From NCBI GenBank assembly GCA_051294375.1, contig CM119266.1, positions 26,292,851 to 26,356,850 on the forward strand: a stretch of DNA of 64,000 bases, given 5' to 3'. This DNA is from Paraspadella gotoi. Taxonomy: Eukaryota; Animalia; Chaetognatha. The notes beneath the pieces were generated by a model. It saw only the letters and a list, made by a program, of their open reading frames with translations, did no database searches and was not told the DNA's origin. The translations under genes and the position numbers were made by a program. Positions 13,104 through 63,054 of the stretch are shown here, piece by piece; positions within the stretch are counted from its first letter, which is position 1; each line of letters opens with the position of its first letter.

Positions 13104-14665
13104 TCATTCGGAAAGAGATTCGACCCCCGTCGCGACGCCGGGAAACGCCTCTTGATCCGACAAAGTCTGCCGCTTCCTAGCGGTGTTCATGTAGGGCCTG
13201 AAGACCCATTCGACGTCGGCGACGTCCTCTTGGTCGACGGTGCCGAGTACGATCTTATGCAGTCGAAGTTCGAAACGAGGACCAGCCTCGGTTAACTCAG
13301 TACGCCGACCCTCTGATAACTTGTAACTGGATAGAAGCAAAATGAATCTACACAATAACGAACTCAACCCCCTAAAGCGTGCTTTGACTAATGGGCATAC
13401 GTGTGATGTCTGAAGGATATGTAGTCGCGGTTGTTAACGAAGGTGACCATTCGGCGAGTGTCCTCCTTGGGCACAGGGAAGAGATGCTTGAGGATCATCA
13501 TAGCCCGTCGACCGAGCTTCGTTTTAAAGTTGTGGAAAACGAGATGAGGGAAGGCTTCGGACATTGGTCCCACATCTGGAATTTTGGAAGAAAAAAAAAT
13601 CATTCATCTCAAAGAATTTTTAAAAAGATAATAAAACGATCTACATACTGGGAATGTCATGGCGCATGACGGTGTTCATGATGGAAAAATAAGCGGTGGG
13701 TCCGTAAGGAAGATGCGAGATCACTGAATGAAAGAAATCACGATTAAACATTTCAGTCCGTCGATGAGGATTAAATAAAAACTCACCAATTTGATCGGGT
13801 TCACCCCGCGTCTCGTGCAGCATAACGAGGTCGGTGACCTCGTTGGCGACGCAGGCTTTGACCAGCTCGGCGATTTCGTAACCGCCACGGTTGATCCGCT
13901 GAGCACCGGGCAGCAGCAGTTTGATCTCTTTGGCGAATTGCTTGAGCCTCGCCGAGGGGTCGCGTGAAGTGGTAAGCATGATTTTAGGGTCTGAGACGCC
14001 GGCCCATCGGTATTCGTCGTCTTGGTTGGTCGTGAATCCCTCGCCACCCTAAAGAAAAACAAAAGTTCAAACTGTAAATGGAAATGTCAAACTATTAAAC
14101 GAAAATAATTGAACAATAGATTAAAAATATATATACATATACTGTACAGATTAACGCTGGCAGAGCGGTCTTATTATAAAACTCTCTCTTTTTCAGTGAA
14201 TTTGATAATAATTCTTTGTTTAGGTTGAACTTCTCCTTTCTACTAAAATATAGTAAATAATTTGTTCTACATTCGGGCTTTTAAGGTTTTAGGGCTGCTA
14301 GAGGTTAATGACGCGCAATTTTATCAATATTTGGGCTTATTTGGGCGGCATAAAGAACATATACAGTGATGGAGGCCTTAAACCACCAAAGCCTGTCCAA
14401 AGTCAGGGGCAAGATAGCTTATTTATTAAATGAATGGATAATTTTTATATTGGTTGTACCAATTTCATAAATATATAACCTCGTCGTCGTATTTGATTTG
14501 CCGCTCCAACTCGACGGCTTCCTTCCGCAAATCTGTCGGAATCGGCGTCATGTCCTCCAACGATTTTTTCAGTCGATCTTTTTTTTCTTGGATCGAGCGT
14601 CTTTGTTCCTCCACCGACTTCCGGTAAAGGTACTCGCGTCGGAGGCGCGCCTGTCGTCGTAACAT
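13104..14665 (-). CDS. IMP4: U3 snoRNP protein IMP4 (multi-exon)
   Basis: [17 protein letters not shown]..., [70 protein letters not shown] (Brix domain). Confidence 0.95.
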
Positions 14666-15063: not shown

Positions 15064-18000
15064 TTATTTTTTCGATCTGATCAGCAGGACTTGAAAATCC
15101 CCTACGCTTGTCCCCGTTACACCAGTTACAAGGTGGTGCTCGTCGGCCTGCACACTTTCGAAGGCATCGCCCGCGGTATCGGCGCCGAGAAGTCGGAAGA
15201 AACCGTAGGTGTTGTTTTCGCGCATGAAGGCGTCGGGATCGAGGCCCTGGTCACGTGCGCGGAGAATGGTATTATCGTCGACAAAAACGCCGGCAGCGCA
15301 GTGGCCGGGGCCGTCGAGACCGTCGGTGGCCATGCAGAGGAACGCGATCTCCACGTCCTTGTGCCACGAGGCGTTGCGACCAGCCGTCTTAAGTCGGTCC
15401 AATTCGACAGCGGCGGCAAGGGCCAACGTTTGATTCCTTCCCCCGAGGCCGGAACTGTTCAGAGGGACCGCCACTTCCGGACTTCCAGCTGAGATTATAC
15501 ACAATCCCTAGTCGATATAAGAAAAATCCTGTTAAATTAATGTTGACTAATGTTGTCATAAAAAGCTCGTACTAAAAAAAGTACCTGGCCAGAGTTAAAA
15601 GCGGCCGAAGCGACTTTCCCTAACTCTTTCGCGGTCTCCTTTCGTAATCCCTTTTCCACCAGCGACATCTCAAGCTTGACTAGATCCTTATCCGGCTCCG
15701 AACCTAAAGACAAAGTATTCTTTGACGATCAAAAAAAAAACCCAAAAAAAACCTCAATTTCCAATGTCACAACTGTCTTACCTTTCCGTTTGAGCATGTA
15801 ACTAGCGTAGGCGGCCAAGCGTCCCCATTCGACTCCTCTTTCCGAGGCGACACCGGTTAGTCGAGAAGTCAAAACGAACGTATGATATCTACGTCGTGCG
15901 TCGTTATAAAAATATAAAAACCGTCATGGTTTAAGAAAATTTTTTTTATTTCGGCTTTCAGTTCCTTTTTGTCTTCGATACCTTCAGTCAGTTCATATGC
16001 CGTTGCTTGTTTGCATTATTATTATATTGGTTGTACCAATTTCATAAATTAATTTTCAAATTGACAAGTCAAAAAATCACATTTTTTAATTTTATTACAA
16101 TTTGTTAAACAAAAATAGTTTGATTTACCGACAATTCTGCGCTTCTGACACCTAAAAATTAGGTCAAATAATTCAGTAATGAAAAAAAAATTTAAGCCAA
16201 CTATGGCAACAGCCGGGTTGCCTGTGATGCCCATTGGGATGGGGCATCTCACTGTTGGCTCTGGGGGCTTCCGACCCTCAGTGGCGCCTCCAGTCACTGG
16301 CGCGGTTACCCTAGGACGGTCTCGCTTTGCCAACGCAGAGGGAAGTCGTTAGGACTGGATGGAACACTACGCCTGGGATGATGTGTTCCCCCTCTGAGCC
16401 AATGGATTTGGCTGAAGGATGGTGGACGTGAGGCGGTGTGAATATACCGCCACACAACATTTTAACTTATTTTATAGTTTTAACAGATGAGAGAAGGTAA
16501 TGGTGACAAATTAAAAAAAAAAACCGCGTTCTTTTAATGGAATGGAAAGCGTCAGTATTTTTTTTTATCTCAATCAAGTTTTTGCGGAATAGTTTTCCGC
16601 AAAAATCAGTCGATTTACTAAATCTGCTAGGCAACCAAACTGCTACTAAAATCATATACAATCATATACTACACCGAGTTAGTTCTCTGTTATAACCAAA
16701 CTTTTTTTTTGAAATAAAGAGTTTCATATAAGTCAGTGGGAAAAAAACAAGTTTGAGTAAACAATGTCGGATCTGCCCACGATCATTATCGGTAATTAAT
16801 TCATTAATAATTAAATAATTCAAGTTAATTAATTAATTATGCAATTAATTAATTAAATTGATCTCAAATATTTGTTTTTAGGTCTTTCCGTCACTAACCA
16901 CGATAAAAGCAATGACGACGATGAGAATAATATCGATAACAATTGACTTGATTGATTGACTGATTAATTATTGATTAACTAATTGACTAATTGATTAATT
17001 AATTATTTGATTTATTAATACATCCTGCATTTACATTTAATATAAAAGGAAAAAGAAGCATAATCAATTAGTGAAATAGGTTTTTTGTTATGAAATTGGT
17101 ACAACCAATATAAAAATTATCCATTCATTTAATAAATAAGCTATCTTGCCCCTGACTTTGGACAGGCTGTGGTGGTTTAAGGCCTCCATCACTCTTACAA
17201 GATAATGACATAGCAGGTCCCTGCAAGCTTTCAATCAAGACTCTCTCAGTCTTGTTTATTCACTCCCAGAGTACCTGGCTTCCCTATCAATGAAGTGGTT
17301 TAATATTTTAAAGAATGTTCAATTGTATGAAAAGGCCGCTCCCTTAAGTATTAGATCGGAGAATACTTATTGTACTCCGCACTAGTATCAAAATACAAGG
17401 AGCTGAATTTTATGAAATTGGTACAACCAATATAAAAATTATCCATTCATTTAATAAATAAGCTATCTTGCCCCAGACTTTTGACAGGCTTTGGTGGTTT
17501 AAGGCCTCCATCACTCTTATTTAAGTTCCAAATTTGTTGTTGAAAATACCCGCATCACAATTACTGCCTCAGACACCTCATCCCTAATATTAATGCTTTT
17601 GTTGTCATGTCACTCACCCAATGTTGGTGGCCCTCTCGGCGGCGGCCAGGCAAAGGGCCTTCCCGTTGGCCACTAGCACGTTTTGTACGTGGGAGAAATC
17701 TTTTTCCGATGACAAGCATCCGCCGAGAAATTCGACGTGGAAAGAGGATGACAACGACGACGAGGGACGACTTGCTTCCTCCAACTCCGTCAGCCTCCGC
17801 GTCAAGACGCTCCTCACGGAGACAGGAAATTCCGCCTCAATGTTAAAGGCTGCGTGGATCGGATTTCTCGTTGAATTAAATATGAAAGATATTTTGAATT
17901 CGAATCTGTCACCAACCTTTAACAAGATCCAAACAGTGCCGTGGCGTGGTAGGATCCGGTGCCGTGGGTCCTGAAGCGATAACCTCGAGGGCGTCGCCGG

Positions 18001-19983: not shown

Positions 19984-22900
19984 TCAGAGCGCTGAGTCAC
20001 TGCTCAGAGATATAGAGGATAAGTCGGGGCAAAGTTTCCCAAGATCGTCTGACATCTCATCGGCGAGGGCATCGATGATATCGAGGAGTAATGGTCGCGG
20101 TAACGACTTGATCGGCGGCAGTCGCGCCACTTTGCTAAAATTGTGGACGATAAGGTTAAGAGCGTGCTTCTTCATGTCCATAGCCTGGTTGAAACAAAAC
20201 AAATAGTAAGAACTCGATAGAAAACGATGCAAAAAAAACGTCTTTTCAGCGGAAAACCTGAATCTTGTCGGAGGCTTCCAAAATCTGAACAACGTTTTGC
20301 ACTGAGACGTTCATTTCAAGATTGTGTTTGCAAAATGCCTGAAGACGGTTGTTGGTGAAACCGTAGAAATAAGGGGCCGAAAAGAGATATAATGAATCCT
20401 CGGGCGGCATTGTGACGTCGCCCCAATAGAGGTACCGAAGAAGCGAGTCGAAAGCCTGAATCAAGAGGGAACGTTACCTGCTTGCATTGACAATTATGCA
20501 TCCTATGAATATATATTATATATATTATATATTATGAATACTGTCGTATCGATGAGAATTACCTGCCGTGAAGGTATCATTTCTCCGATGGAGATGGTAA
20601 CTTCGTCGTTTTCCGGCATAAATGAGCGAAACATAGCCTCAAAGTAAGACGACCTCGCCGCCATAATCGCCTTGTGTGCAGCGACGGGAATTTCTCCTAA
20701 TCTAAGGACGATATCGCAGAACTCTTTTCCTTTAAATTCGAGGAAGGCTTGGAGATCCTGCTCCAAGGATTTATTCATCAACGACGATGAATCAGGTCCG
20801 GGTTCCGGCAACGATCTGAGAGTAAAAAAAACAACCGGTTTTACAACGACTTTCCACATTGAAGTTGCCGCAATAATTCTGTCAAACCTGACGATAGGCA
20901 TTTGTCGCCTTCGGATAACCTCGACCATCAATGGTTGCTCCAGCGTCTCAAACTCCTTGGACATGACGATTTCGTCGTAGTTTGTTTCTTTGACAACGAA
21001 CTTGAGGCAGAATTCCTTGAGAAAGGCCAAATTCAATCTGGCCGCATTCTGCAGCGCCGCCAACACGTTACGATGGCTGATGGAAACCTCCAGATAATTT
21101 ACGCACAATTGCTCCAGACGGGCCATCTCGAATTGCAACGCAAGCCGGTAGACCTTGGAAGATGATCGAGTAATCGTCAAAAATCAAATGACTTTTTTTC
21201 GTTGGACCAATCAAATTTTGAGTACCTCCATCATTAGCAAAATAACTTGGTTGCTGTTGGGGTCACGGCCTCCTCGAGTCGGGCAGATCCGGTCCGTGTA
21301 AATATAGGACAGAACGAGGCGAAAGGCCTCGGGTACGGCGTCTGGTAAGGCTACTGACGCTTTCACGGATTTAAAGCGAGTTTGAGGCGCGAGGCGACGG
21401 ACCGCGGACGAGCTCACACCCTAGAGCAATCATAAAAAGAAATGTTTACCCAAAAAATACAAGTTGTAAATAAGTTTAAGCAAACAATGTCGGATCTGCC
21501 CACGATCAATATCGGTAATTAATTAATAAATAATTAATTAGGCAATTAATTAATTAATTTGATCCCAAATGTTTGTTTTTAAGTCTTTTTGTCACTCACC
21601 ACGACAAAAGCAATGACGACGATGAGAATAATGCCGATAACGATTTACTTGATTGATTGATCGAATAAATAATTAATAGATAAAAAAATTGATTGATTGA
21701 ATAATTAATCGATTGATTAGTTGACTGATTAATTAATTATTGATTAATTAATTGACTAATTGATTAATTAACTGATTAATTATTTGATTAATTAATACAT
21801 CTAGCATTTACATTTAATATAAAAAGAAAAAGAAGCATAATCAATTAATGAAACAGGTTTTTTATTTTTTCCATTTAAACTCATTTCCACTCAAACGATT
21901 CCATTAAAACTTGATTTCCAGCTTAATCACACACTTCCCTACCTACACACAAAATTTCATTCCAATCCATCCATCCCATCACGAGTAATTGGCGTTTTTT
22001 GCTAAGGTGGGACGGACGGACAGACAGACAGACGGACAGACTGACGGACATAATTTTTTTTGCATAATTTATCATAATTCGATATTTTGACATGATATAA
22101 GTGAATGCCCAACAAGATTCAGGGGGCGGACCGACGGACCGACAAAGTGAATTAGAGTCGGCATCTGCTGATAAGCAGATCCGACTAAAAACGCTCTCTC
22201 GATGAAACATATTTACCTCAGGAGGAACGGAATGCGCCAGAGATTCCAGAGCCTGTTTGATTTTTAACTTCAACCAATCGGATCTACAAAAAATGTCGAG
22301 ATAACAGTCGAACTACTAATGTTTTTCACTCGAATTTCGTCGACGAAATTAGTGAATAGTGTTTTAAAATTTTAACTCGAAATATTACGGAACCTGGCGG
22401 CGACGATGGCGACGTGGGCGCCGATGATGACGCGTTGGACGCCAACGACGAACTCAAGATCACAGAAGAGGCGAGACTCGAGAAGCTTCCCGTAGTCGCT
22501 GTGGAGCGTGCACTTGGGGTAGGAAGAGAACTGAAACCGGTACATCTCCCCAGAGCGTATGTTATTGTCTACGGTGCCGCCAAATACGAACATGGCGTCC
22601 CCGACCACGGCAGCAGCGTGGAAAAGCCGTCCGGAGGGACGTTGGGAATCCTGGTGTGAAAGAGAAGCGATCGAAACGCATTAAAACTTGTGTTAAATAA
22701 ATCGAAGAAAATAGCAATTAAAAGAAGAATGAGGAAGTATTAAAGATAAGTATAAAGTTATTTAATTTTCTCACTGGTGTCGGAGCGACGACAGCCCAAG
22801 ATTGGGCGTCAAGATCGAAGCAGTGAAGCTCATTCGGCATCGCCTGACCCGCCGCTCCGCCAAAGACGTAGAGGTGGCGGTCATGGGCGACCATGGTATG

Positions 22901-26007: not shown

Positions 26008-27984
26008 TTATTCTTCAGTCACTTTTAATGATGATTCCTCTCGTATTTGAGGGTCTAAATTGATGTTTTGGTGGCCACATAAGCGTTTGAGCGGCTCTTC
26101 GATCTCTCTCTCAAACCGTCGAATTTGTTCAGCATTTAAATAGTTGACCCAGTCCCCGATGGCGCCTTTGCGCATAAATTCCCCTCCCTTTTTGATTATG
26201 CCGAGATCCTGGAACCAGGAATAATTGCAAGTCTTTATATTCCGCAATACGGCGAAGCTGGTAAAATGCCTGAGAGGGAGACGCGTAAGCTTTACTTTTC
26301 GCCAAGATTTCGCAAGAAGAGACAAGAGCGTGCAGGAGAGTACAAACCTGATCCAATCCAGTTCCACGGGACTGTAGGGCCCTACGCGCAAAAACTTGGA
26401 GATACGATCCACTTCCCGTTTAAAATTGGTCTTTAACTCTTCAAAGTGGACGATCAGAATCCTTCGATTGATGCCTGGCAACTGACTCGCCGAAACGTAC
26501 GAAGCAACGTGTGGAACGTAGGGAGAGTAAGGAAGATCGCCGCTGAAGAAATCCTCGATGAAATCGGAAAAGTCGAAACCATCGGCCATCTGCACCTGAG
26601 TTTCGGAAGTTATTGATATCTGAGTGAAGGCAGAGCACAATAAAGTTCTTTTATCCAATTTAAACAGTTTTTTAAAAAATTATACCAAATCAAGATAGCT
26701 TATTAATTAAAAGAAGTGGTTATACCAATTTCATAGTGAAAGTTAAATACGGGAACTTAAAAATTTATTAGTTTAAGATCTAAATTTTCTTGCCTCGGTC
26801 AGGATGCCCATGAAATGAAAGAGACTGACTGCAACATCCCGAGGATTGCGAGTAACATAGATAATCTTCGTTGCGGGGCACTCTAGTACGGACGGGGGAA
26901 GAAGTGACAACGGCAAATGGGATTTGATGATGCGCGGCGAAGGCAGTTGATCGATGGCATCGCGGCCCGGGCATGGGAACTCGATGAAAGGAATTCGCTC
27001 GTCCAGATTGGTCTTTACGGCTTTCTCAATGGCTTGACTCATATGATAATCTTCGTGCCACTGTGGCAAAGCGAAGGGCGGACAGTTAAACCTCCCTGCT
27101 ACACCTTAATATACATTGTATACGTATGTATGTACGCACGTATACTTATGAACGTATATGTACGTATGTACATATGTATTGGTCGTACCAATTCCAAAAC
27201 GGTCAGCTGCTTATGTGTAGCTTATTTATCAAATGAATGGATAATATTTATATTGGTTGTACCAATTTCATTGTATTCCCGATCCCATACTTAAGGGAGT
27301 GTCCATTTTATACAATTAAAACATTCTTTGAAACATTATACCACTTCAATGATAAGGAAGCCCTGAACTCTGGGAGTAAACAAAATAGACTGTGTGAGAG
27401 TCTTGATTGAAAGCTTGCAGGGTCCTGCTATTTTATAAGCCAATAAGAGGTATGAAGGCCTTAACCAACCATAGCGTGTCCAAAGTCAGGGAATAGAAAG
27501 CTCATTATTAAATGAATGGATGATTTTTATATCGGTTGTACCAATTTTATGCCTAAAATCGGTACATATTTCTTTTTTTACCCTGTTAAGGAGCATGAAG
27601 ACGATCTCTTCGACCCATGTTGTGCCGCTCTTCGGATAGGAAACGATCCAAACGTCTGATCGTCGAGTTTCAAAATCCCGAATCTTATCGAGCTCCACGA
27701 AATCGGGAAGGTTGAAAGAAAGACACTGCAATTCAAGTGTGAGAAACATCCTTCTTTGTCAAACGATTAAACATGAAGCGAATGGAATCGAATACCTGTT
27801 TTACTTTAAAGTTGGGTCCATACTGCGGCAGACGCTTTTGTGTGATCGCAAGTGATTCTATCTCCGGAGTAGACAAGACCGCGCTACCTTTCGTTGTTTC
27901 GTAAGCATAAATCGCTAGACATCCGGTCCCAACGGCAGATGCCAGGAAGACGCATTTTCTCGTCCAAGAAAGTTTTGGTGACAT
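26008..27984 (-). CDS. Cytosolic-type (Sulfotransfer_1) sulfotransferase with hydrophobic N-terminus
   Basis: 5'-PSB loop DVWIVSYPKSGTTW, IIKSHLP, 3'-PB motif RNPRDVAVSLFHF and C-terminal FMRKGAIGDWVNY. Confidence 0.9.
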
Positions 27985-28167: not shown

Positions 28168-31100
28168 TCACCACCCTTTTTTCTTCTTTTTTCCTTGTGG
28201 TTTCTTGCCCTTATTTCCACCGCTTCCGGATGCTTTTTGCTGAGACTGTTGCTGCTGTTGTGGTACCGATTTCCCGCCAGTGCTCTGTAGCGTCGGAGAG
28301 GCTGTTGGAGGTGAAGCAGCCTTCGGTACGGCTCCTTAAACAAGCGGATAAAAAGAAATTCATCTTCCCCTAAAAAAAACCTCAAATCTCTCCCAAATCC
28401 CAAAGATAAACCCTTACCTGGGGCAGGTTTAGACGCGTCCAAACCCTCCACGGTTCCAACGCCGCCCTGTGTTCCTTTGCCAATTCCGCCGTCTTTGCGC
28501 TTGTCGCGACGTCGGCCCTTGTAATTAGAGCGATCCTTGCGAGGCAGCCAGCGTTCGGGATCAGGATCGGATTTTGGATCAAAGTTCTTTGGGAGTTTTC
28601 CTCGTCGTTTGCGGCGTTTCTTTGATTTCGACAGTAGGAGTTCCGTAGCCCCGGCTTTAACTGAGAAAAAAGAAAGCGATTAATCGTGGTTTGTAGCGGT
28701 AGTATTTCATACCCGGCATCGTCTTCCACAGGTTGAACAATTAAGCGGGATGGGAGACTTACCCCCGGCGACAGAAGGCGATGTTTTCTTGTCGTCGTCC
28801 TTGGTCTGAGTCTTTCTAGAGTACTTGGGACCCGAAGCGAAACAGTGAGCCTCCAGCTCGTCAACGTTAACGCCGTGAGCCATTTCCTCGGGTGATGGCA
28901 AATCGCGAGAAACCTGGATCAGAAAAAAAAATTTGCTCGAGAACGACATTTTCGAATTTTCGAAAAAAATATTTTGACTAAAAGATGCGCTAACCTTCTG
29001 CGCCTTCACCGGATCAATTGTGGCGTAGGCGGTAATGAGCTGCGCCAACAATCTCAGATCTCTCGGAGCCTTGGTGCGCAATTCCTCTAACAACGTCACA
29101 GCACTGGAATTTTGCCCCAGAGAAAGCATAGTCGAAGCGCATTCTCGCATCAGCATTTCTAAAGACGAGTCACTCAACCGGTTCTGTTTTGAAACATAGT
29201 TATCCATATGAAAATTGTCCACTCGGGTTGAAAAAATCAGAGTCATACCTCTTTTTTGTTAAAAGCAATAGCGGAAGACAGGTAGTCGACGGCGGCGTCC
29301 TTGTCTTCCATATTTTTCAGTAGGGCCACGACAGTAGCGACAACGCCCAGGCGAAACCGGGTCCCCTCGCCTAAGTATTTAAGTCTTTCCACGGCGAGAC
29401 TGATGGAACCTATAAAAAATAACAGTTAAATTTATTAAACTTAGTTTTTTATTTTTAATACGTATATTGTGGCGAAACCTGAATTCGCCTCCCGTATAGC
29501 TTGGACGGTTAAGTACTCGTTCACCGTGAGTTCCCCGTGAGTTCCGGGTTCAATCCCCTCACAGTCACGATGGTGTCGGCATAAACACGCCAGTGACATG
29601 GGGTGGTCACTGCAGGTCCAAAGCCCTGAGCGCCAGCTTTCGGGAGATGCCTCACACTCTTGGTCTCCCCGTTGCCATAATATTATGAATTAGGATAAAA
29701 AATATCAGGGCACCTTGCTGAAGATGAAGTTGAACTAGGGCCAAGGCGGCGCGAAGGCATTCCGAGTTTCGGTTCTTTGCTTTCTTGGCGGCCACGAACT
29801 CCTCGAGGGTCGCAAACGCCTAAAACCATTTTTCTTTAATAATTACGAATCTTTAAGATAATCTCGATCTCACCAAACCTACGATCCTTACCTCGGAGTT
29901 TTTCTTCTCGCGCAAAAATGAGGCAGCGATAACGAGGGTCAACTCTTCCTGCATGTCTGTCTCCTTTTCCAACAAAGTCCCTATTAGTTTTCGAGAGGCG
30001 TCGCCCTGTCCTATTAAGAGATAAAAAAAAATATTTTCTTGAAAATTTAGGCGGAAGTTCAACACTACAAAAAAAGTAGCCACTTGTTTCGCACCGAGAA
30101 AAACTATATTGGATAACTGAATTTCATAAAGATATAAAACAAAGTTTATTAAAAGATGAGGCGATTGGTCCAAGACCTATAAAATCAAGCAAAGTGGTCG
30201 AAAATTATAGGATGTCTAAGTATTATAAATATTTAATAATAGAAGAAAGTCATAAACTCTTTGTCTAAAATATTTTAAAAGAAAAATAAAGCAAATTTAT
30301 TGCCAACCCTCTTATATATTAAATTCCGTTATGATTTTATTAATTCTATTTTGTAAACATCAGTCCAAAAAAGAAGTGTCATTAACTCTAACCTTTAAAA
30401 ATAACATTTTCCCTATTTCGTTTTGAGACTGACTAAGGTCTTGCGGTAGACCGCCTAAACCAATTAAAACTTTTTTTGCACCAATCGATAGCTCTTTACA
30501 AAATTTTAAAAATATAGTGATCTCGTCAGACGTTGCTATCAAAGAAAATTAATGAAAAAATCCGAAAAAAAAAAACGAATGATTCATGCGATAACAAATT
30601 ATTGATGTAATTTGACCGGAATAAAACTCACAAGAGCGATCAAATGATAGAGTACAATCCCCTTTTTTGCGGTGTTTAAACATAATAATTTAGAGTCACT
30701 TTAAAGATGAAATCAATTTTAATCATAAATTTTAAGATAAATTTTTGATTAATATCATAATTACTAATATTATTAATATTTAATTTTTATTAATATTTTT
30801 AATAATAATAATATTATTAATTGACTAAATTTAATTAAATTTGTTTATTAATTTTTTTAATTTGGCTTACCCTTTACCATATCTCATATTAAACATGGCC
30901 ATTCAACTTATTCTACTTAAATTTTAAGTTTTATTAAACAAACCTTTATAATACTTAGTAATAAAGGTTAATAAGTAATAAATATGAGATATAACAAGAT
31001 AAATTTTTAATTTTTGATAAAAATTATTTTTTAAATTAATTCTTAGAAATTAAAAAATTTAATTATAAATAATTAAATCTAAATTCAGGTAAAAAAACTC

Positions 31101-49887: not shown

Positions 49888-51448
49888 TTGTTTTTTTATA
49901 AAACTAGTACGTAAACAAATAATTCATTTTCTATCTCAAATTTTATTATAAAATTATAAAATTTGTATTAGTGAACAAAAAAATGTATGAAATTGGTACA
50001 ACCAATATAAAAATTATCCATTCATTTAATAAATAAGCTATCTTGCCCCTGACTTTGGACAGGCTTTGGTGGTTTAAGGCCTCCATCACTCTTACAAGAT
50101 AATGACTAGCAGGTCCCTGCAAGCTTTCAATCAAGACTCTCTCACAGTCTCGTTTATTCACTCCCAGAGTACCTGGCTTCCCTATCAATGAAGTGGTATA
50201 ATATTTCAAAGAATGTTTCAATTGTATGAAAAGACCACTCCCTTAAGTATTAGATCGGGGAATACTTATTGTACTCCGCACTAGCATCAAAATACAAGGA
50301 GCTGAATTTTATGAAATTGGTACAACCAATATAAAAATTATCCATTCATTTAATAAATAAGCTATCTTGCCCCTGACTTTGGACATATTATTGCCAAAAT
50401 GAGACTCGACGCTAAAGGGAAAACAAAATTAAATGGATTAACAAAACACCGACAGGTGGTAGCTAAAGTTGGTTGCGGACGTCGAATAGTAAAGTTACCC
50501 AGGAAGGGAAGGGGATGTTAAGGGTAATTAGGATTAAGGGATTTTGTGTTTAGAATTAATTGGGTTACTATATAAAGTTTAAAATTTTTAAAAAAAATTT
50601 TATTATAGATTCTGGTAGAGCTTTAAAAGTTAGATAAAGGTTATTAATACAACTTTTTAAATTATTTTTGTTTTATTGATAAAAGTTTAAAAAAAAACTA
50701 TAAAATTCAGCCAATGATGATGATGATGAATTTTTTAAGGTTTTTTCTATTTTTAACCAATTTATTGTCAAAATTTTAAAAAATTGTAGTACTAACTTTC
50801 ATTTAACTTTTTAAGTCATAGGAATCTGTTCTTAAAAAATAAAATTTAATTTTTTTTTCATTTGTTATATATTAAAAAATATTTAAAAGCTTCAGTGCAA
50901 CAACCCAATGAACTAATTCAAAAAGTTGCATTGAAAATCGATTTAGTAATAGAAGGAAAAAAGGATTTTTTTTAGATAACAAGAAGTGTTCAATTTTGGT
51001 CCGCCTAAAGGGGCTAAACTAAAGTAAGGTGTTCGACAAACAATTTTATATTAAAAATATTTTTTAATCTACAATAGGTTTCTTTACTTTCTCTACATTG
51101 TTGCTTCCATGAAACCACAGACTGGTAAGTTAAACAGTGAATCTGAATGTTAAATTTTACCGATTTGGATGCGATTGGTCGATACCTTGAAGTTAAAAGT
51201 TGAAGTTAGATACGTGATTCTTCATTCAATCCTTTTGTATGGTGGCGCCGTGATTCGGAAGTTTCGCAAAGACGAAACAGAACAGAAAGAAAAGATTTTT
51301 TTATTTCACTAAGGAGGGCGCCACTGTATAAGGTTATTCATGTAAAGCATAGCTGATCTAATCGAAGTCCGCTGTGATTCTAGATTCGTTTTCTAAATTG
51401 TCAAATATATTATTTATCCTAAGTCAAGAAACATTTTTGTCGAGGATC

Positions 51449-56397: not shown

Positions 56398-59300
56398 TCA
56401 GCCTTCGAGTCGTGCGCGATGTTCCGTCCTAAGTAGCCATCGGCCAAGCGGTGTAGGAATGGTTAACGATCCTTTAGAAACCACAAAAAAAAAAAATTTA
56501 ATCAAATTTTAATATGGGTTTAAAAGATTTCTCCTCTAACAAACCACTGCTAATGACGCGTTCCCGACTCGCCACTTCTTCTGCCAACGCTTTGATCCCC
56601 ACAAACGTTTCCTATGTAAGAAAAACGATGTAAGTTCGCCGCTGCCATCGCCGTCTGAAAGTCCGTTTATCGCTTACCGCTCCGACCGGAACGATTTCCG
56701 TCGACGGGAGAAGAAACCCGTAATTTCCTCGATCCGGAAGTTCCACTGTGTAGGCGTACTTGACGCCGGCGATCCCCTTTACCCAGTCATCAGAACCTCC
56801 AGAAGCTGAGTCTGTCACAATCGATAAGGGCCACAAAATTTAAATTATTTATCACTTATGCGATTTTATTTATTATGTTTTCTTTGTCCTTACATAATAT
56901 TCTTGTCGACGATCCTGTTTGATAGACGGTATGTCGAACCGTTTTGATTGCTGCGATAGCTTTTTCAGCCACTGATATCTTGAATTTTGGCATGGTAAAT
57001 CAAACCAAACAAAAAAAATCTTAAATTAACATCAATGCTTCGTGAGAAGGACAAACTCTCGTGTAACATTTTTGGCACTACGTATTCCATTGATATTCAC
57101 ACATCAAGACGAAGATCACTGAACGTTGACGTTTGAAGAACAAAATAAACAACGATGTTAAGGGAAAATTTCTATCGGGGCTAGGATCGGCGAGGGGAGG
57201 GAAGCGCATTTTGCAATGATAACAAGTGGGCAGAAAAACAAACAGTCCGTTGTCATCTCGTTTAAGGTCTTCTTTACCCCCTGTTGCAAAGTCTATATGG
57301 CCATACGGCATTCAAAACGCTAATGTTCTTTATCTAGTTTCGACCATAGCCTTTATTACCAGTTCATCATAGTCGTTGGGAACGTCGTATGTGTAGCCCC
57401 ACGGAGTTAAAAACATTTGTGAATAGGAATGAAGTGACAGGTATATCTGAAAAGTTATAGCATATTAAACAAAATTCAGTAGATGCGACTTGTCAACTGT
57501 ATATGAAATTGGTACAACGAATATAAAAATTATCCATTCATTTAATAAATAAGCTATCTTGCCCCTGACTTTGGACAGGCTTTGGTGGTTTAAGGCCTCC
57601 ATCACTCTTACAAGATAATGACATAGCAGGTCCCTGCAAGTTTTCAATCAAGACTCTTTCACAGTCTCGTTTATTCACTCTCAGAGTACCTGGTTTCCCT
57701 ATCAATGAAGTGGAAAATATTTCAAAGAATGTTTCAATTGTATGAAAAGACCACTTATTGTACTTATTGTACTCCGCACTATCATTTTTACGGCGATGAA
57801 AATCTAATACTAATTAAGCTTGATTTCTTTTCCTGCTACAGAAATCCGCTCACCTTAAAAACATTTTGGTTTTTGAGGATGAATTCAGACATGAGTCTCG
57901 TTTCTGGTTCGGAAAACGGGAGTGACCCGGCATACGTGTCGTCGCATGGATTCGAGCTGGCGCCTGCGGGATAAACTTTAGCATCAACCAATGGTTTTAA
58001 CTTCGCTCAATACTTTTTATAGATACCAACAGAAGATTGTAAAATTGTGCCTAGCAAAAAAGTCAGTTCTTATAATATACATAACAATATCACGAACTTG
58101 ATACAAAAACTGATAGAGAATGACGAACAGTAACAGAATAAAAAAAAAGTTTGAGCAAACAATGTCGGATCTGCCTACGATAATTAAGTGGTAATAAGCT
58201 AACTTGGTCAACTTGCATAATTTAATCAACTTGCATTATTTGGTCAACTGGCATAATTTGGTCAACTGGCGTAATTTGGTCAACTGACATAATTTTGTCA
58301 GCTGACATAATTTGGTCAACTGACATAATTTGGTCAACTGACATAATTCGGTTAACTGACATAATTTGGTCAACTGATATAATTTGGTCAACTGACTTAA
58401 TTTGTTTAACTGACATAATTTGGTTAACTGACATAATTTGTTCAACTGACATAATTTGGTCAACTGATATAATTTGGTCAATTAACATAATTTGGTGAAC
58501 TGGTATAGTTTGGTCAACTGGCATAATTTTATCAACTGGCATAATTTGGTCAACAGGCATAATTTGGTCAACTTGCAGAATTTAGTAAACTGGCATAATT
58601 TGGTCAACTGGCATAATTTGGTCAACTTGCAGAATTTAGTCAACTGGCATATTTTTGTAGATTGGCATAATTTGGTCAATCAATCAATCAATCAGAGAGA
58701 GATAGAGAGAAAGAAACTTTAAAAAATTCAAATAAATGTGTCTTTTGGTTTTCTAATTTGAACTTTTTTCCACTCTTACGATTCCATCAAAAAATTTATA
58801 TCCAGCTTCATCACATACTTTCCTACCCACACACAAAATTCCATTTCAATTTATCTATCCAATTTTTCATAAACATAATAATTATGAGTAAATTTAAGTA
58901 AAAATACCTCAGGTAAATATGACTTTTGTTTTTTCCATTTTAACTCATTTCCACTTGCTCGATTCCATCGAAACTTTATATCCAGCTCAATCACACACTT
59001 TCCTACCATCATACAAAATTTCAAGTTAAATGTCATATTCACTCATGAGCAATGTAGTCGGGCATTGCCTAGGTTCACCCCGCCTAGAATCATGACGCTT
59101 TCAGTTGTGACCCGGTGGCTCATTGAGTAAAGCCATCAGCTCATGACCACTAGGTACCGGGTTCAATCCCAACCTGGTACCTACCCTGCGGGAAGCGTGA
59201 GGACGGCCGTAAGCCGCCTTGGGGTATGGCAAACCCTCAAGCCTGGTTCCAAGCCCAGGGACCCGTTCCATGGCTGTTAGAGGGGGTTATAGAAGTTACG

Positions 59301-61335
59301 GACAGTCATCTTCAGCCCACGTTGCGCCTTATCCACACTGGTGAGCCCATCCTGTCGAGCGTATTCCAACCTTCTGATTCCAGGCCCTTGGTCTAGCTGA
59401 AGATTGCTCCCCTCCCTCCACTGGAAGCAGTGCAGGGTGGGTTACAACTGGGGGGCATGTAGTCGGGCATTGCCTAGGTTCACCCCGCCTAGAATCATGA
59501 CGCTTTCAGTTGTGACCCGGTGGCTCATTGAGTAAAGCCATCGCTCATGACCACTAAGTACCGGGTTCAATCCCAACCTGGTACCTACCCTGCGGGAAGT
59601 GTGAGGACGGCCGTAAGCCGCCTTGGGGGTATGGCAAACCCTCAAGCCTGGTTCCAAGCCCAGGGACCCGTTCCATGGCTGTTAGAGGGGGTTATAGAAG
59701 TTACGGACAGTCATCTTCAGCCCACATAGCGCCTTATCCACAGCAATTGGCGTTCAAATAGTGAAATATATTTTTTTGTTTTTTCCATTCAAACCAATTT
59801 CCACTCGCACGATTCCATCAAAACTTCATATCCATCTCAATCAAACAGTTTCCTACCCACACACAAAATTTCATTCCAATCCATCCATCCAATCACGAGT
59901 AATTGGAGTTTTTTGCTAAGGGTGGACGGACGTACGGACATCATTTTTTTTGCATAATTTATTATAATTCGAGGTTCTGATATGATAATAATAATTTACC
60001 GACAATATTTTGGGGTGGGACCGATGGACCGACAAAGTGAATTATAGAGTCGGAATCTGCTGATAAGCAGATCCGACTAAAAAACTAGTTCAGAAAATCT
60101 AGGAAACGATAAAAAAATTCGAGGTTTATAAACCCACCGCTTTCCCGCCAATGAAAACCCCAGTTACGATTCGGATCGGCGCCACGACAGTTGGAGAAAA
60201 CTGTTTTCGATCGCGTCTTGCGCCACAGCCGATTGTGAGTCCACGTGTATTCGTAACCGTCTATTTCGAAAAATTGGGGAAAATACTAACTTGAAAGCTT
60301 TCAGTTTTCTCTTTCCTCTTCCTTCCCAGACACCTGGATTTGCGACGGGTAAAAGAAACCAATCAAAGTTGTCAATCAATCGCTTGGTCCTCGCGAGGCC
60401 ATTTCTCCATTCTTCAAGAAGCTGCAAAAGTATTCGCGTCGTAATTGAATTTTAAAGATTAACATCTTTTGTGGAGGTTTGTCCGTCTTGTCAGAGCCCG
60501 TAGATAAAATATATAAAATCTAACTTGAAATATAAATTAGTAATTGGGTCCTTTCTCATTTTCGTTCGTTCTATTTTTAGTATAATTCCGAGAAGCGACG
60601 ACAGTGAGCGGCTATTATTTTATTTTTCAGTCCGATTCCATCTCCTATTCCACGTATTCCACCTCCTTGGTGAGTCACCAATGGTGACTCGCTTGATTGT
60701 TGACTTCGTTTGCGTCCAATCGTGCGGTGTAACGAGTTTCTTCGTCTTAAAGGGAATTCCTAAACAAATCAATTCAGGAAAAAAAACCTTAGAGATCACG
60801 TAGATGAGCGTCGCTGGTGCGATCCACTCTCTCGCGTGAATTCCAGCGTCGATCCAAATGCCCGTCTTCGGCTGACCATCCGTTCGAGGTTTGCCGAGCT
60901 TCATCGAGAATGAGCAAAGATCAAGTCCAATTCATTAAACAATCAATTCTGTAACATTACCTTCAAAATTGCTAGTGGCCGTTGCTCGCTGCTTTTCCCC
61001 AGAAAAATAAAAGAACAAATTTCCGAATGAGCGGCGCAAGTTTCGCGCATCCATGAAAGAATCTAATGAAGAATAATGATTTTAATAATCAGCCCATTTT
61101 ATTTGGTATTTTTTAAACAGTCATTTTTAAAATGCCTTGTCTTCTAATACGAATTCCCTGTTTTTTCGGAAGATTAATAATTAAAAATTTCGACAAACAC
61201 TTTGGTCAGTCAGTACCTTTGTTTACGATTACCTCGTCGTAGCGCGCATAACGGCCAACAATGTTATGAGTTTGAGATTTTTCCTCCAGATCTGTCGACA
61301 GATAAAGACGCTGGCGTTCTTCCTCAATTAGACTG
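56398..61335 (-). CDS. M14A zinc carboxypeptidase (A/B type); 5' exons not located
   Basis: [86 protein letters not shown]. Confidence 0.9.
58200..58680. repeat. 18-bp minisatellite (GGTCAACTGACATAATTT)n
   Basis: About 26 tandem degenerate units are directly visible. Confidence 0.95.
59188..59266 (+). ncRNA. Twister ribozyme motif, P5-type permutation (LTR1)
   Basis: GCGGG..GT-GA-GGA-CGGCCG-T^AA-GCC-GC-[P3]-CCTGG-T-TCC-AAGC-CCAGG..CCCGT. GGA/TCC forms pseudoknot T1; predicted cut at 59210/59211. P2 is weak. Confidence 0.7.
59592..59671 (+). ncRNA. Twister ribozyme motif, P5-type permutation (LTR2)
   Basis: Same motif as in LTR1; predicted cut at 59614/59615. Confidence 0.7.
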
Positions 61336-61479: not shown

Positions 61480-62690
61480 TTAAACAAGTTTGAGCAAACA
61501 ATGTCAGATCTGCCCACGATCATTATCGGTAATTAATTAATTAATTAGGCAATTAATTAATTAATTTGATCCCAAATGTTTGTTTTTAGGTCTTTTTATC
61601 ACTAACCACGACAAAAGCAATGACGACGATGAGAATAATGCCGATAACGATTGACTTGATTGATTGACTAATTGATTAATTAACTGATAAATTATTTGAT
61701 TAATTAATATATCTTGCATTTACATTTAATATAAAAATAAAAAGAAGCATAATCGATTAGTAAAACATGTTTTTTGTTTTTTCCATTTAAACTCATTTCC
61801 ACTCGGACAATTCCTTCGAATCTTCATATCCAGCTGGATCACAAACTTCCCTACCAACACACAAAATTTCATTCCAATCCATCCACCCAATCACGAGTAA
61901 TTAGTATTTTTTGTTAAGGTGGGATGGACGGACAGACAGACAGACGGACGGAGGGACATCATTTTTTTTGCATAATTTATCACAATTTGATGTTCTGACA
62001 TGATATAAGTGAATGCCCAACAAGATTGAGGGGGCGGACCGATGGACCGACAAAGTGAATTATAAAGTCATCCCACCTTAGCAAAAAACACCAATTACTC
62101 GTGATTGGATGGATGGATTGGAATGAAATTTTGTGTGTTGGTAGGAAAGTGTGTGATTGTATATGAAGTTTCGATGGAATTGTCCGAGCGGAAATGAGTT
62201 TAAATGGAAAAAACAAAAAAATATATTTCATTATTTGAACACCAATTACTCATGAGTGGATGGGGCGATTGACTTGAAATTTTGTATTTGGGTAGAAAAG
62301 TGTGTGATTAAACTGGAAATCAAATTTCGATGGAATCGTTTGAGTGGAAATGAGTTTAAATGGAAAAAACAAAGAACCTGTTTCACTAATTGATTATGCT
62401 TCTTTTTCGTTTTATTTTAAATGTAAATGCAAGATGTATTAATTAATTAAATAATTATTCAGTTAATTAATCAATTAGTCAATTAATTAATCAATAATTA
62501 ATTAATCAGTCAATTAATCAATCAAAACAAACATTTTGGATCAAATTAATTAATTGCCTAATTAATTAAATAATTAACCTGAATAAATTAATTATTAATT
62601 AATTAAATAATTAACTTGAATTAATTATTAATGAATTAATTACCGATAATGATCGTGGGCAGATCCGACATTGTTTGCTCAAACTTGTTA
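61480..62690. mobile_element. Two HINE-like copies joined in inverted orientation
   Basis: AACAAGTTTGAGCAAACAATGTC at about 61483 mirrors GACATTGTTTGCTCAAACTTGTT at about 62667; the junction lies near 62070. Confidence 0.6.
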
Positions 62691-63054
62691 TCTTCTGAAA
62701 GCCCTTGCAAATATGAAGAGAATGGGCTGTACTCCTGCTTCGGGTATTTTAGACAATGATTTTGAAATTCGAATAACTATCATTTATTTTCACCCCACTG
62801 ATAAATATAGGACGTTCTTCAGTTAAAAAAACGGTTGGCTATAGTTATCTTTTCCTTATAATTTCGAGCACACTTGGTGAATTTCAAAATACGGTAAGAC
62901 ATGATTTCTTCAATCAAATCTCGTTATCTGCTTAATTTTAAGAAAAAGTACATGCGATTTTTCATGGTAAGCACAACATTTAAAGATTAAATTGCTCGTA
63001 GGAATTTAGGCGTCAATCAGATTCACAGAACTCTACAGGATAAAGATGACACTT

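Follow-up and report, generated by a model that had tools for sequence, protein, structure and literature searches.

What is the short repeat that lies in an intron of a glycerate-kinase-like gene on the stretch analysed here (64 kb in full; the window), and on what would the twister ribozyme motif within it act: on the host transcript, or on that of the repeat itself? To our knowledge, twisters occur widely across animal genomes and hardly any function has been assigned to them, and LTR retrozymes come mainly from plants and have been described with hammerheads only. The reading preferred here, to which a probability of roughly 0.6 is given, is that 16202-16454 is a solitary LTR bearing an intact twister motif and belonging to a non-coding LTR mini-retrotransposon of high copy number. 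With much the same confidence, the element would operate like an LTR retrozyme that has a twister for its ribozyme and a promoter of the Helenus kind.

The 16 kb element and its twister motif

The features of the element are as follows.

16202..16454, minus strand: solo LTR-like copy, 253 bp, with TG...TA ends, of a high-copy non-coding element (ends from contig loose ends)
16198..16201: left 4-bp target-site duplication (TSD), CAAC
16455..16458: right 4-bp TSD, CAAC
16432..16451, minus strand: 5' terminal hairpin of the LTR (folding)
16205..16248, minus strand: two conserved 3' hairpins of the LTR (folding z -2.3; 1 variable site in 52 nt)
16391..16401, minus strand: Pol III box A-like motif (1 mismatch to a consensus of our own making)
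16357..16365, minus strand: degenerate box B-like motif (3 mismatches of 11)
16254..16334, minus strand: type-P5 twister motif (descriptor and inspection of pairs)
16334-29/16259-54, minus strand: P5, 6/6 pairs
16305-02/16325-22, minus strand: P2, 3 pairs and a C.A apposition
G16321, minus strand: general-base G
16319-17/16273-71, minus strand: T1 pseudoknot, 3/3 Watson-Crick pairs
16301-00/16268-67, minus strand: T2 pseudoknot, 2/2 Watson-Crick pairs (GC)
16299-93/16285-79, minus strand: P3, 6/7 pairs with an A.C mismatch
16277-75/16266-64, minus strand: P4, 3/3 pairs
16307..16308, minus strand: predicted cleavage site U16308/A16307 (from its position in the twister consensus)

The element with its CAAC duplication, as proposed in the initial annotation, is real, its ends being fixed by contigs in all four runs. 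Contigs depart from the window at exactly 16202 (173, 135, 104 and 32 loose ends) and at exactly 16454 (129, 103, 80 and 31). The flank adjoining the family ends is ATAT-like in the majority of contigs, and the contigs make the 16 kb copy one of at least 100 insertions of its family. No two-LTR parent of this family was seen in the 64-kb window or in the contig summaries of genomic copies, which carry no haplotypes. Depth across the insertion junctions (16180-16201 and 16455-16480) was near single-copy in runs X2 and X7 and near zero in X5, from which the insertion may be polymorphic; since a filter may explain the drop in X5, polymorphism is not claimed.

Read from 16334 to 16254, the strand order is P5, the 3' strand of P2, G16321-A, the T1 triple CCG, an 8-nt P1 segment and U16308/A16307-A; after the cut follow the 5' strand of P2, the T2 GC, P3, P4 and the loop U-CGG-AA-GC. 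The twister core of the copy accordingly reads GA-CCG ... UAA ... GC ... U-CGG-AA-GC, and the catalytic bases (cleavage-site AA, general-base G and A, and the AA of L4) are all intact. The P2 pairing had been overlooked at first; no variant row occurs at 16305 or 16322, so the C.A apposition atop P2 is taken as the state of the family.

The motif shares with the Rfam type-P5 twister (RF02684) its strand order, catalytic G and A, T1 and T2, and differs from it in that P1 is a loopless palindrome of 6-8 nt rather than a hairpin and P2 is irregular. RF02684 gave no match to the 16 kb copy even at E<=1, and by score the copy stands outside formal membership of that family. Excess folding stability was absent from the 16 kb twister region (z-score 0.05), as was an energy signal from the twister regions generally (z 0.05 to 1.0, and -0.6 and -0.8), and the minimum-energy fold of the 16 kb region recovered only P3-P5. 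A relaxed descriptor, composed after the sequences had been seen and tuned on them, matched eight sites in the window, where 40 shuffles averaged 0.2; the eight are the 16 kb copy, a 29 kb element, both LTRs of a 59 kb element and four copies of a separate repeat. A strict descriptor was set aside, two of its three matches being AT-rich chance matches. Two scans of JGI metagenomes for relatives gave 0 and 10 matches, with T1 pairing in none of the 10.

Related elements and the conservation of the fold

Two further LTR elements with a twister motif were found in the window.

59053..59742, plus strand: complete two-LTR TRIM with TSD GCAA (LTRs 97.9% identical, 285 bp each)
59053-59337 and 59458-59742, plus strand: LTR1 and LTR2 of the 59 kb element
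from 59339, plus strand: PBS-like TGG tract
59450-59455, plus strand: polypurine tract (PPT), a G-tract before LTR2
59210/11 and 59614/15, plus strand: predicted twister cuts, 404 nt apart
29468..29679, plus strand: related solo LTR with TSD ATAT, canonical box B and a twister with broken P2
29574-29581, plus strand: P1 segment of the 29 kb element

The predicted 404-nt stretch of the 59 kb element holds exactly one LTR-equivalent together with PBS and PPT; judged by its sequence, the element has the retrozyme layout, with two putative twisters bracketing a monomer that carries PBS and PPT. Energy folding of the 404-nt circle likewise yielded no signal (z -1.3, 50 shuffles). The 29 and 59 kb elements both lie antisense to apparent host genes. 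The young 59 kb element sits in another repeat, inside an intron of a minus-strand gene that, by its motifs, is putatively carboxypeptidase-like.

The 29 and 16 kb LTRs share the same last 9 nt and, across 73 nt, 71% identity (E 0.004). Between the 16 and 59 kb LTRs the similarity is 54.6%, with shuffles averaging 51.1 and reaching 54.6. The proposal of three subfamilies consequently holds for the 16 and 29 kb elements only, since the resemblance of the 16 and 59 kb LTRs does not exceed that of shuffled sequences; what these two have in common is architecture, not sequence. That shared architecture had been said to include the duplication, the A and B boxes and the twister. A 4-bp TSD flanks all three elements and a twister is present in each, but the boxes are weak at 16 kb: the pair was matched as well by 12 of 200 shuffles there, compared with 1 of 200 at 29 kb and 0 of 200 at 59 kb. 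No tRNA was called, and TTTT is absent from all three elements.

All three elements (16, 29 and 59 kb) retain both pseudoknots and the twister core intact. The T1 triples are CCG/CGG, TGG/CCA and GGA/TCC, respectively, as initially described, so that in every one of the three T1 pairs both partners change and pairing is kept; T2 of the 59 kb element is GC/GC. P5 is likewise altered yet paired between the 16 and 59 kb copies. A parallel claim for P3 and P4 stands for P4, which is altered and still paired, but not for P3, whose sequence is nearly identical in the 16 and 29 kb elements and thus shows no covariation between them. P2 is broken in the 29 kb element (0 of 4 in-register pairs) and is a bulged helix of 3 pairs at 59 kb. 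A MAFFT alignment of the four twister families (these and the separate repeat) was out of register.

Variation among genomic copies of the 16 kb family was taken from variant rows reaching at least 2% of depth in at least one run (30 rows at 28 positions). The 16 kb copy departs from nearly all contig depth at three positions; 16261, 16284 (the P3 mismatch) and 16381 are private to it and were dropped before counting. Of the remaining 25 variable positions, 16 fall in the 120-nt 5' part, eight in the 81-nt twister and one in the 52-nt 3' part. Within the twister, loops and linkers make up 18 positions and hold six of the eight (P=0.001); counting the P1 centre as constrained leaves 15 such sites with four of the eight (P=0.035). 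Constrained twister positions are variable at 2 of 63, compared with 16 of 120 in the 5' part (Fisher P=0.035); both of the variants that do fall in stems are CpG transitions, near 2%. As depth-weighted contigs are not independent copies, these P values serve as a guide only. Common variants steer clear of the twister stems. Together, the two-sided T1 changes and the bias of variants towards loops and linkers support the suggestion of selection on the twister fold, which is best read as acting on the replication of the mobile element itself and not on the intronic 16 kb copy.

Comparison with known retroelements

The Helenus/TRIMp3 elements, as described in the accessible part of PMC10886601, resemble the present ones in being short non-coding TRIMs with tRNA-like A and B boxes in the LTR, a PBS and a PPT, a 4-bp TSD in animals, and solo LTRs; the anatomy of two LTRs with PBS and PPT within about 1 kb is that of the 59 kb element here. 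The 59 kb PBS also has nine of its first 10 bases in common with the tRNA-Trp-type PBS of the Helenus supplement in the same source. They differ in that a twister here follows the tRNA-like part and there is no T-run, while that source, as far as its accessible text extends, reports no ribozyme; box B is, in addition, degenerate in the 16 kb family. No twister motif was seen by eye in those animal Helenus sequences of PMC10886601 that were accessible, and six L4 octamers searched in them occurred at three places, all unrelated. Two LTRs from Synergus wasps in that set (Helenus-2_SyJa-LTR and Helenus-2_SyUm-LTR) show by eye a hammerhead-like core downstream of the tRNA-like boxes, with a GUC site, CUGAUGA, GAAA and complementary loops; it goes unremarked in the accessible part of the source. 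These Synergus Helenus-2 LTRs are possible candidates for animal LTR retrozymes, and because of their hammerhead-like core the design of a promoter followed by a ribozyme may recur.

Plant LTR retrozymes, by the portion of PMC4918200 at hand, are similar in having a ribozyme in each LTR, a PBS, a PPT, a 4-bp TSD and solo LTRs, in lacking coding capacity and in having two cut sites that bracket a monomer. There the ribozyme is a type III hammerhead, the hosts are plants and the circles measure 600-1000 nt, whereas the present elements combine a twister, an animal host, a predicted monomer of 404 nt and a tRNA-like promoter. Rfam gave no hammerhead family match in the 64-kb window, and formal membership of the LTR retrozymes fails, the motif being a twister and not a hammerhead. 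What is new here is the combination of a Helenus-like Pol III TRIM with a probable twister retrozyme.

The non-LTR retrozymes and Penelope hammerheads of animals share circles of 170-400 nt and a short palindromic helix that is efficient in dimers, and are set apart as tandem repeats without LTR, PBS or PPT, with type I hammerheads and Penelope machinery (PMC7229834, PMC6765202 and 10.64898/2026.07.22.740005, each in part). The twister variants at the 5' end of Perere-3 in Schistosoma mansoni also place a twister in an invertebrate retroelement, which is, however, a non-LTR element with a single 5' ribozyme and a P1 completed by target duplication (PMC8501958, in part). Reviews, in the sections available, treat LTR retrozymes as mainly plant and animal retrozymes as non-LTR hammerhead repeats (PMC7761336; 10.64898/2026.07.22.740005), and twisters are reported in viroid-like circles (PMC12542633; 10.1101/2022.07.19.500677; both in part). 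Among the literature matches listed, drawn largely from outside subscription journals, none concerned a twister in an LTR element or TRIM, or a natural dimeric twister.

The loopless P1, a proposed cycle and the host intron

The segment that would form P1 is unusual in all of these families.

16309..16316, minus strand: loopless self-complementary P1 segment, predicted dimer helix (8/8 positions pair with a second copy)

Between T1 and UAA, the segment is self-complementary throughout and loopless in all four families (8, 8, 6 and 6 nt). P1 homoduplexes range from -9.1 to -11.0 kcal/mol, compared with +2.7 to +5.6 for forced hairpins; in the 16 kb copy the forced hairpin is unstable at +2.7 kcal/mol and P1 is stable as an intermolecular duplex. 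The central dinucleotide is UA, CG or GC according to family and cannot pair in cis. A self-complementary inner 4 nt in three independent families has a chance probability of about 0.003, for a palindrome noticed after the fact and compared across only four families. In one run, variants at the palindrome centre reach 2-3% of depth. As a control, P5-order twisters from viral contigs were collected (56 loci, 37 distinct), of which 25 were kept and 12 dropped for P2 or P4 with fewer than 3/4 pairs. In this phage set, which has T1 fixed as GGG/CCC and comes from another biological setting, the P1 segment is 15-26 nt long in 24 of 25 and 6 nt in the other. The short phage segment (L038 and L050, 61-98) is also a 6-nt palindrome if the cleavage-site U is counted.

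In Penelope hammerheads and amphibian retrozymes the palindromic helix is very short and only the dimers cleave well, the palindrome of the dimer-dependent hammerheads being stem III, with circularisation by RtcB (PMC6765202 and PMC7229834, in part). Since P1 of the present twisters is a loopless palindrome, their efficient cleavage would by analogy probably need two twisters; that the loopless P1 makes cleavage depend on a dimer is held tentatively, at a little under even odds.

The following cycle is proposed. The job of the twister would be to cut the element's own transcript into unit-length RNA, which would then be circularised and copied. Transcription would start in the left LTR from a tRNA-like internal Pol III promoter, which is clear at 29 and 59 kb and degenerate at 16 kb, and Pol III would read through both LTRs, as all three elements lack an internal TTTT. 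The two twisters of the 59 kb element, exchanging P1 strands for efficient cleavage, would cut 404 nt apart to release an LTR-equivalent with PBS, internal part and PPT. By analogy with retrozymes, a host RtcB-type ligase may close this 404-nt RNA, and a Gypsy-type reverse transcriptase and integrase may copy it and integrate the copy at ATAT-like sites, duplicating 4 bp; the LTR retrozyme cycle provides the precedent (PMC4918200, in part). For the 16 kb family this mechanism is borrowed from the 59 kb element, which does not align to it.

Two twisters come only with two-LTR or tandem transcripts, so an intronic solo copy in sense orientation would be slow-cutting and tolerated, a view rated slightly short of a coin toss. 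The broadest form of the proposal, that several Pol III LTR retrozyme families and a tandem non-LTR family use an obligate-dimer twister while solo intronic copies stay nearly silent, is somewhat less probable again and is offered as a possibility. If the retrozyme reading is true, twisters gain a concrete job in TRIMs that carry one in each LTR beside a Pol III promoter, and more than one kind of ribozyme has been drawn into the retrozyme strategy; the broadest form would add a twister counterpart of the double hammerhead and bring LTR retrozymes, with the ribozyme as an exchangeable part, to animals. The loopless palindromic P1, if dimer-dependent, would also explain how the genome tolerates sense intronic ribozymes.

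Each twister may instead be a self-sufficient monomer, with P1 a hairpin remnant that has lost its loop and solo sense copies cutting their introns and being tolerated because splicing is faster than the cut or withstands it. Monomers may be active since twisters without P1 still cleave (PMC5408937, in part), and in assays of about 2,600 natural twisters imperfections of P1, P2 and P4 were tolerated while changes to pseudoknots or catalytic bases were harmful (PMC11662667; also PMC5113685; both in part). The imperfect P2 of the present motif, with its intact pseudoknots and catalytic bases, fits this pattern of tolerance in PMC11662667. Slow intronic ribozymes leave splicing unaffected and fast ones impair it (Fong 2009, as cited in the accessible part of PMC10919898), and the minor variants at the palindrome centre are also in keeping with a monomer. 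However, the central dinucleotide stays self-complementary as it changes between families, which a loop remnant would not need, and the monomer is considered rather unlikely.

Less likely again is that the twister was functional in ancestors and plays no part in the present spread of the family, which would be an ordinary TRIM or solo LTR with a decayed or passenger ribozyme. The imperfect P2, its loss from the 29 kb copy, the degenerate box B and the want of an Rfam score or folding signal are what such decay would leave; retention of every catalytic base and both pseudoknots, and variants confined largely to loops among many genomic copies, argue against it.

The intronic setting of the 16 kb copy is as follows.

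15889..17617, minus strand: host intron of the glycerate-kinase-like gene, 1.73 kb (acceptor from reading frame and contig span)
17152..17190, minus strand: second intact twister motif, sense, in the same intron, from a separate tandem repeat family of about 322 nt

The flanking exons encode DUF4147 and MOFRL domains (glycerate kinase). A spliced contig joins exon 17849-17618 to 15506-14900 with 227 nt between, and these 227 nt can come in frame from exons starting at 15888 (two solutions, same acceptor); the contig is from run X9, RNA-like by guess, no run being recorded as RNA. From the contig junction and the exons in frame from 15888, the 16 kb copy lies on the sense strand of the 1.73-kb intron, and the sense orientation first reported is so confirmed. 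Cleavage of the host pre-mRNA, also put forward at that stage, is unsupported, as spliced glycerate-kinase RNA spans the intron, in a contig that may come from an allele with or without the insertion. No pile-up of contig ends was seen, an effect to which contigs are blind in any case, and in contigs a circle would look like two-LTR DNA. That the copy cuts the glycerate-kinase pre-mRNA or a polycistronic precursor to an extent that matters for the host is very unlikely: its sense orientation, its place some 420 nt before the acceptor and the reduced splicing caused by fast intronic ribozymes would favour this, but the spliced contig crosses the intron, the copy has private changes and is only one of its many insertions, other sense intronic twisters lie at 17190-17152 and 57603, and no sign of an operon was found. 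Short-intron housekeeping genes on the minus strand are packed very densely in the window from 8000 to 46000, among them Brix-domain, glycerate kinase, CDC50 and EF1-gamma genes. The closest named match of EF1-gamma is a chelicerate protein at 65%, below unnamed matches at 82%.

The tandem family, whose units of about 322 nt stand head to tail and of which there are also 5'-truncated copies, carries a type-P5 twister motif and lies at 17089-17515, 49986-50385, 57502-57675 and 14365-14470 and, diverged, at 27278-27558. Its T2 is changed to AC/GT, its P1 is a palindrome of 6 nt and it is without A and B boxes; RF02684 scores it at 24-25.8 bits against a cut-off of 37.6. Its sequence suggests a non-LTR retrozyme, or an end of Penelope type, in which a twister replaces the hammerhead. 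An AT-rich repeat family at 16745-17089, 21468-22154, 58143-58760 and 61482-62695, possibly Helitron- or MITE-like, contains internal tandem arrays of 8-12 nt and 18 nt, both direct and inverted.
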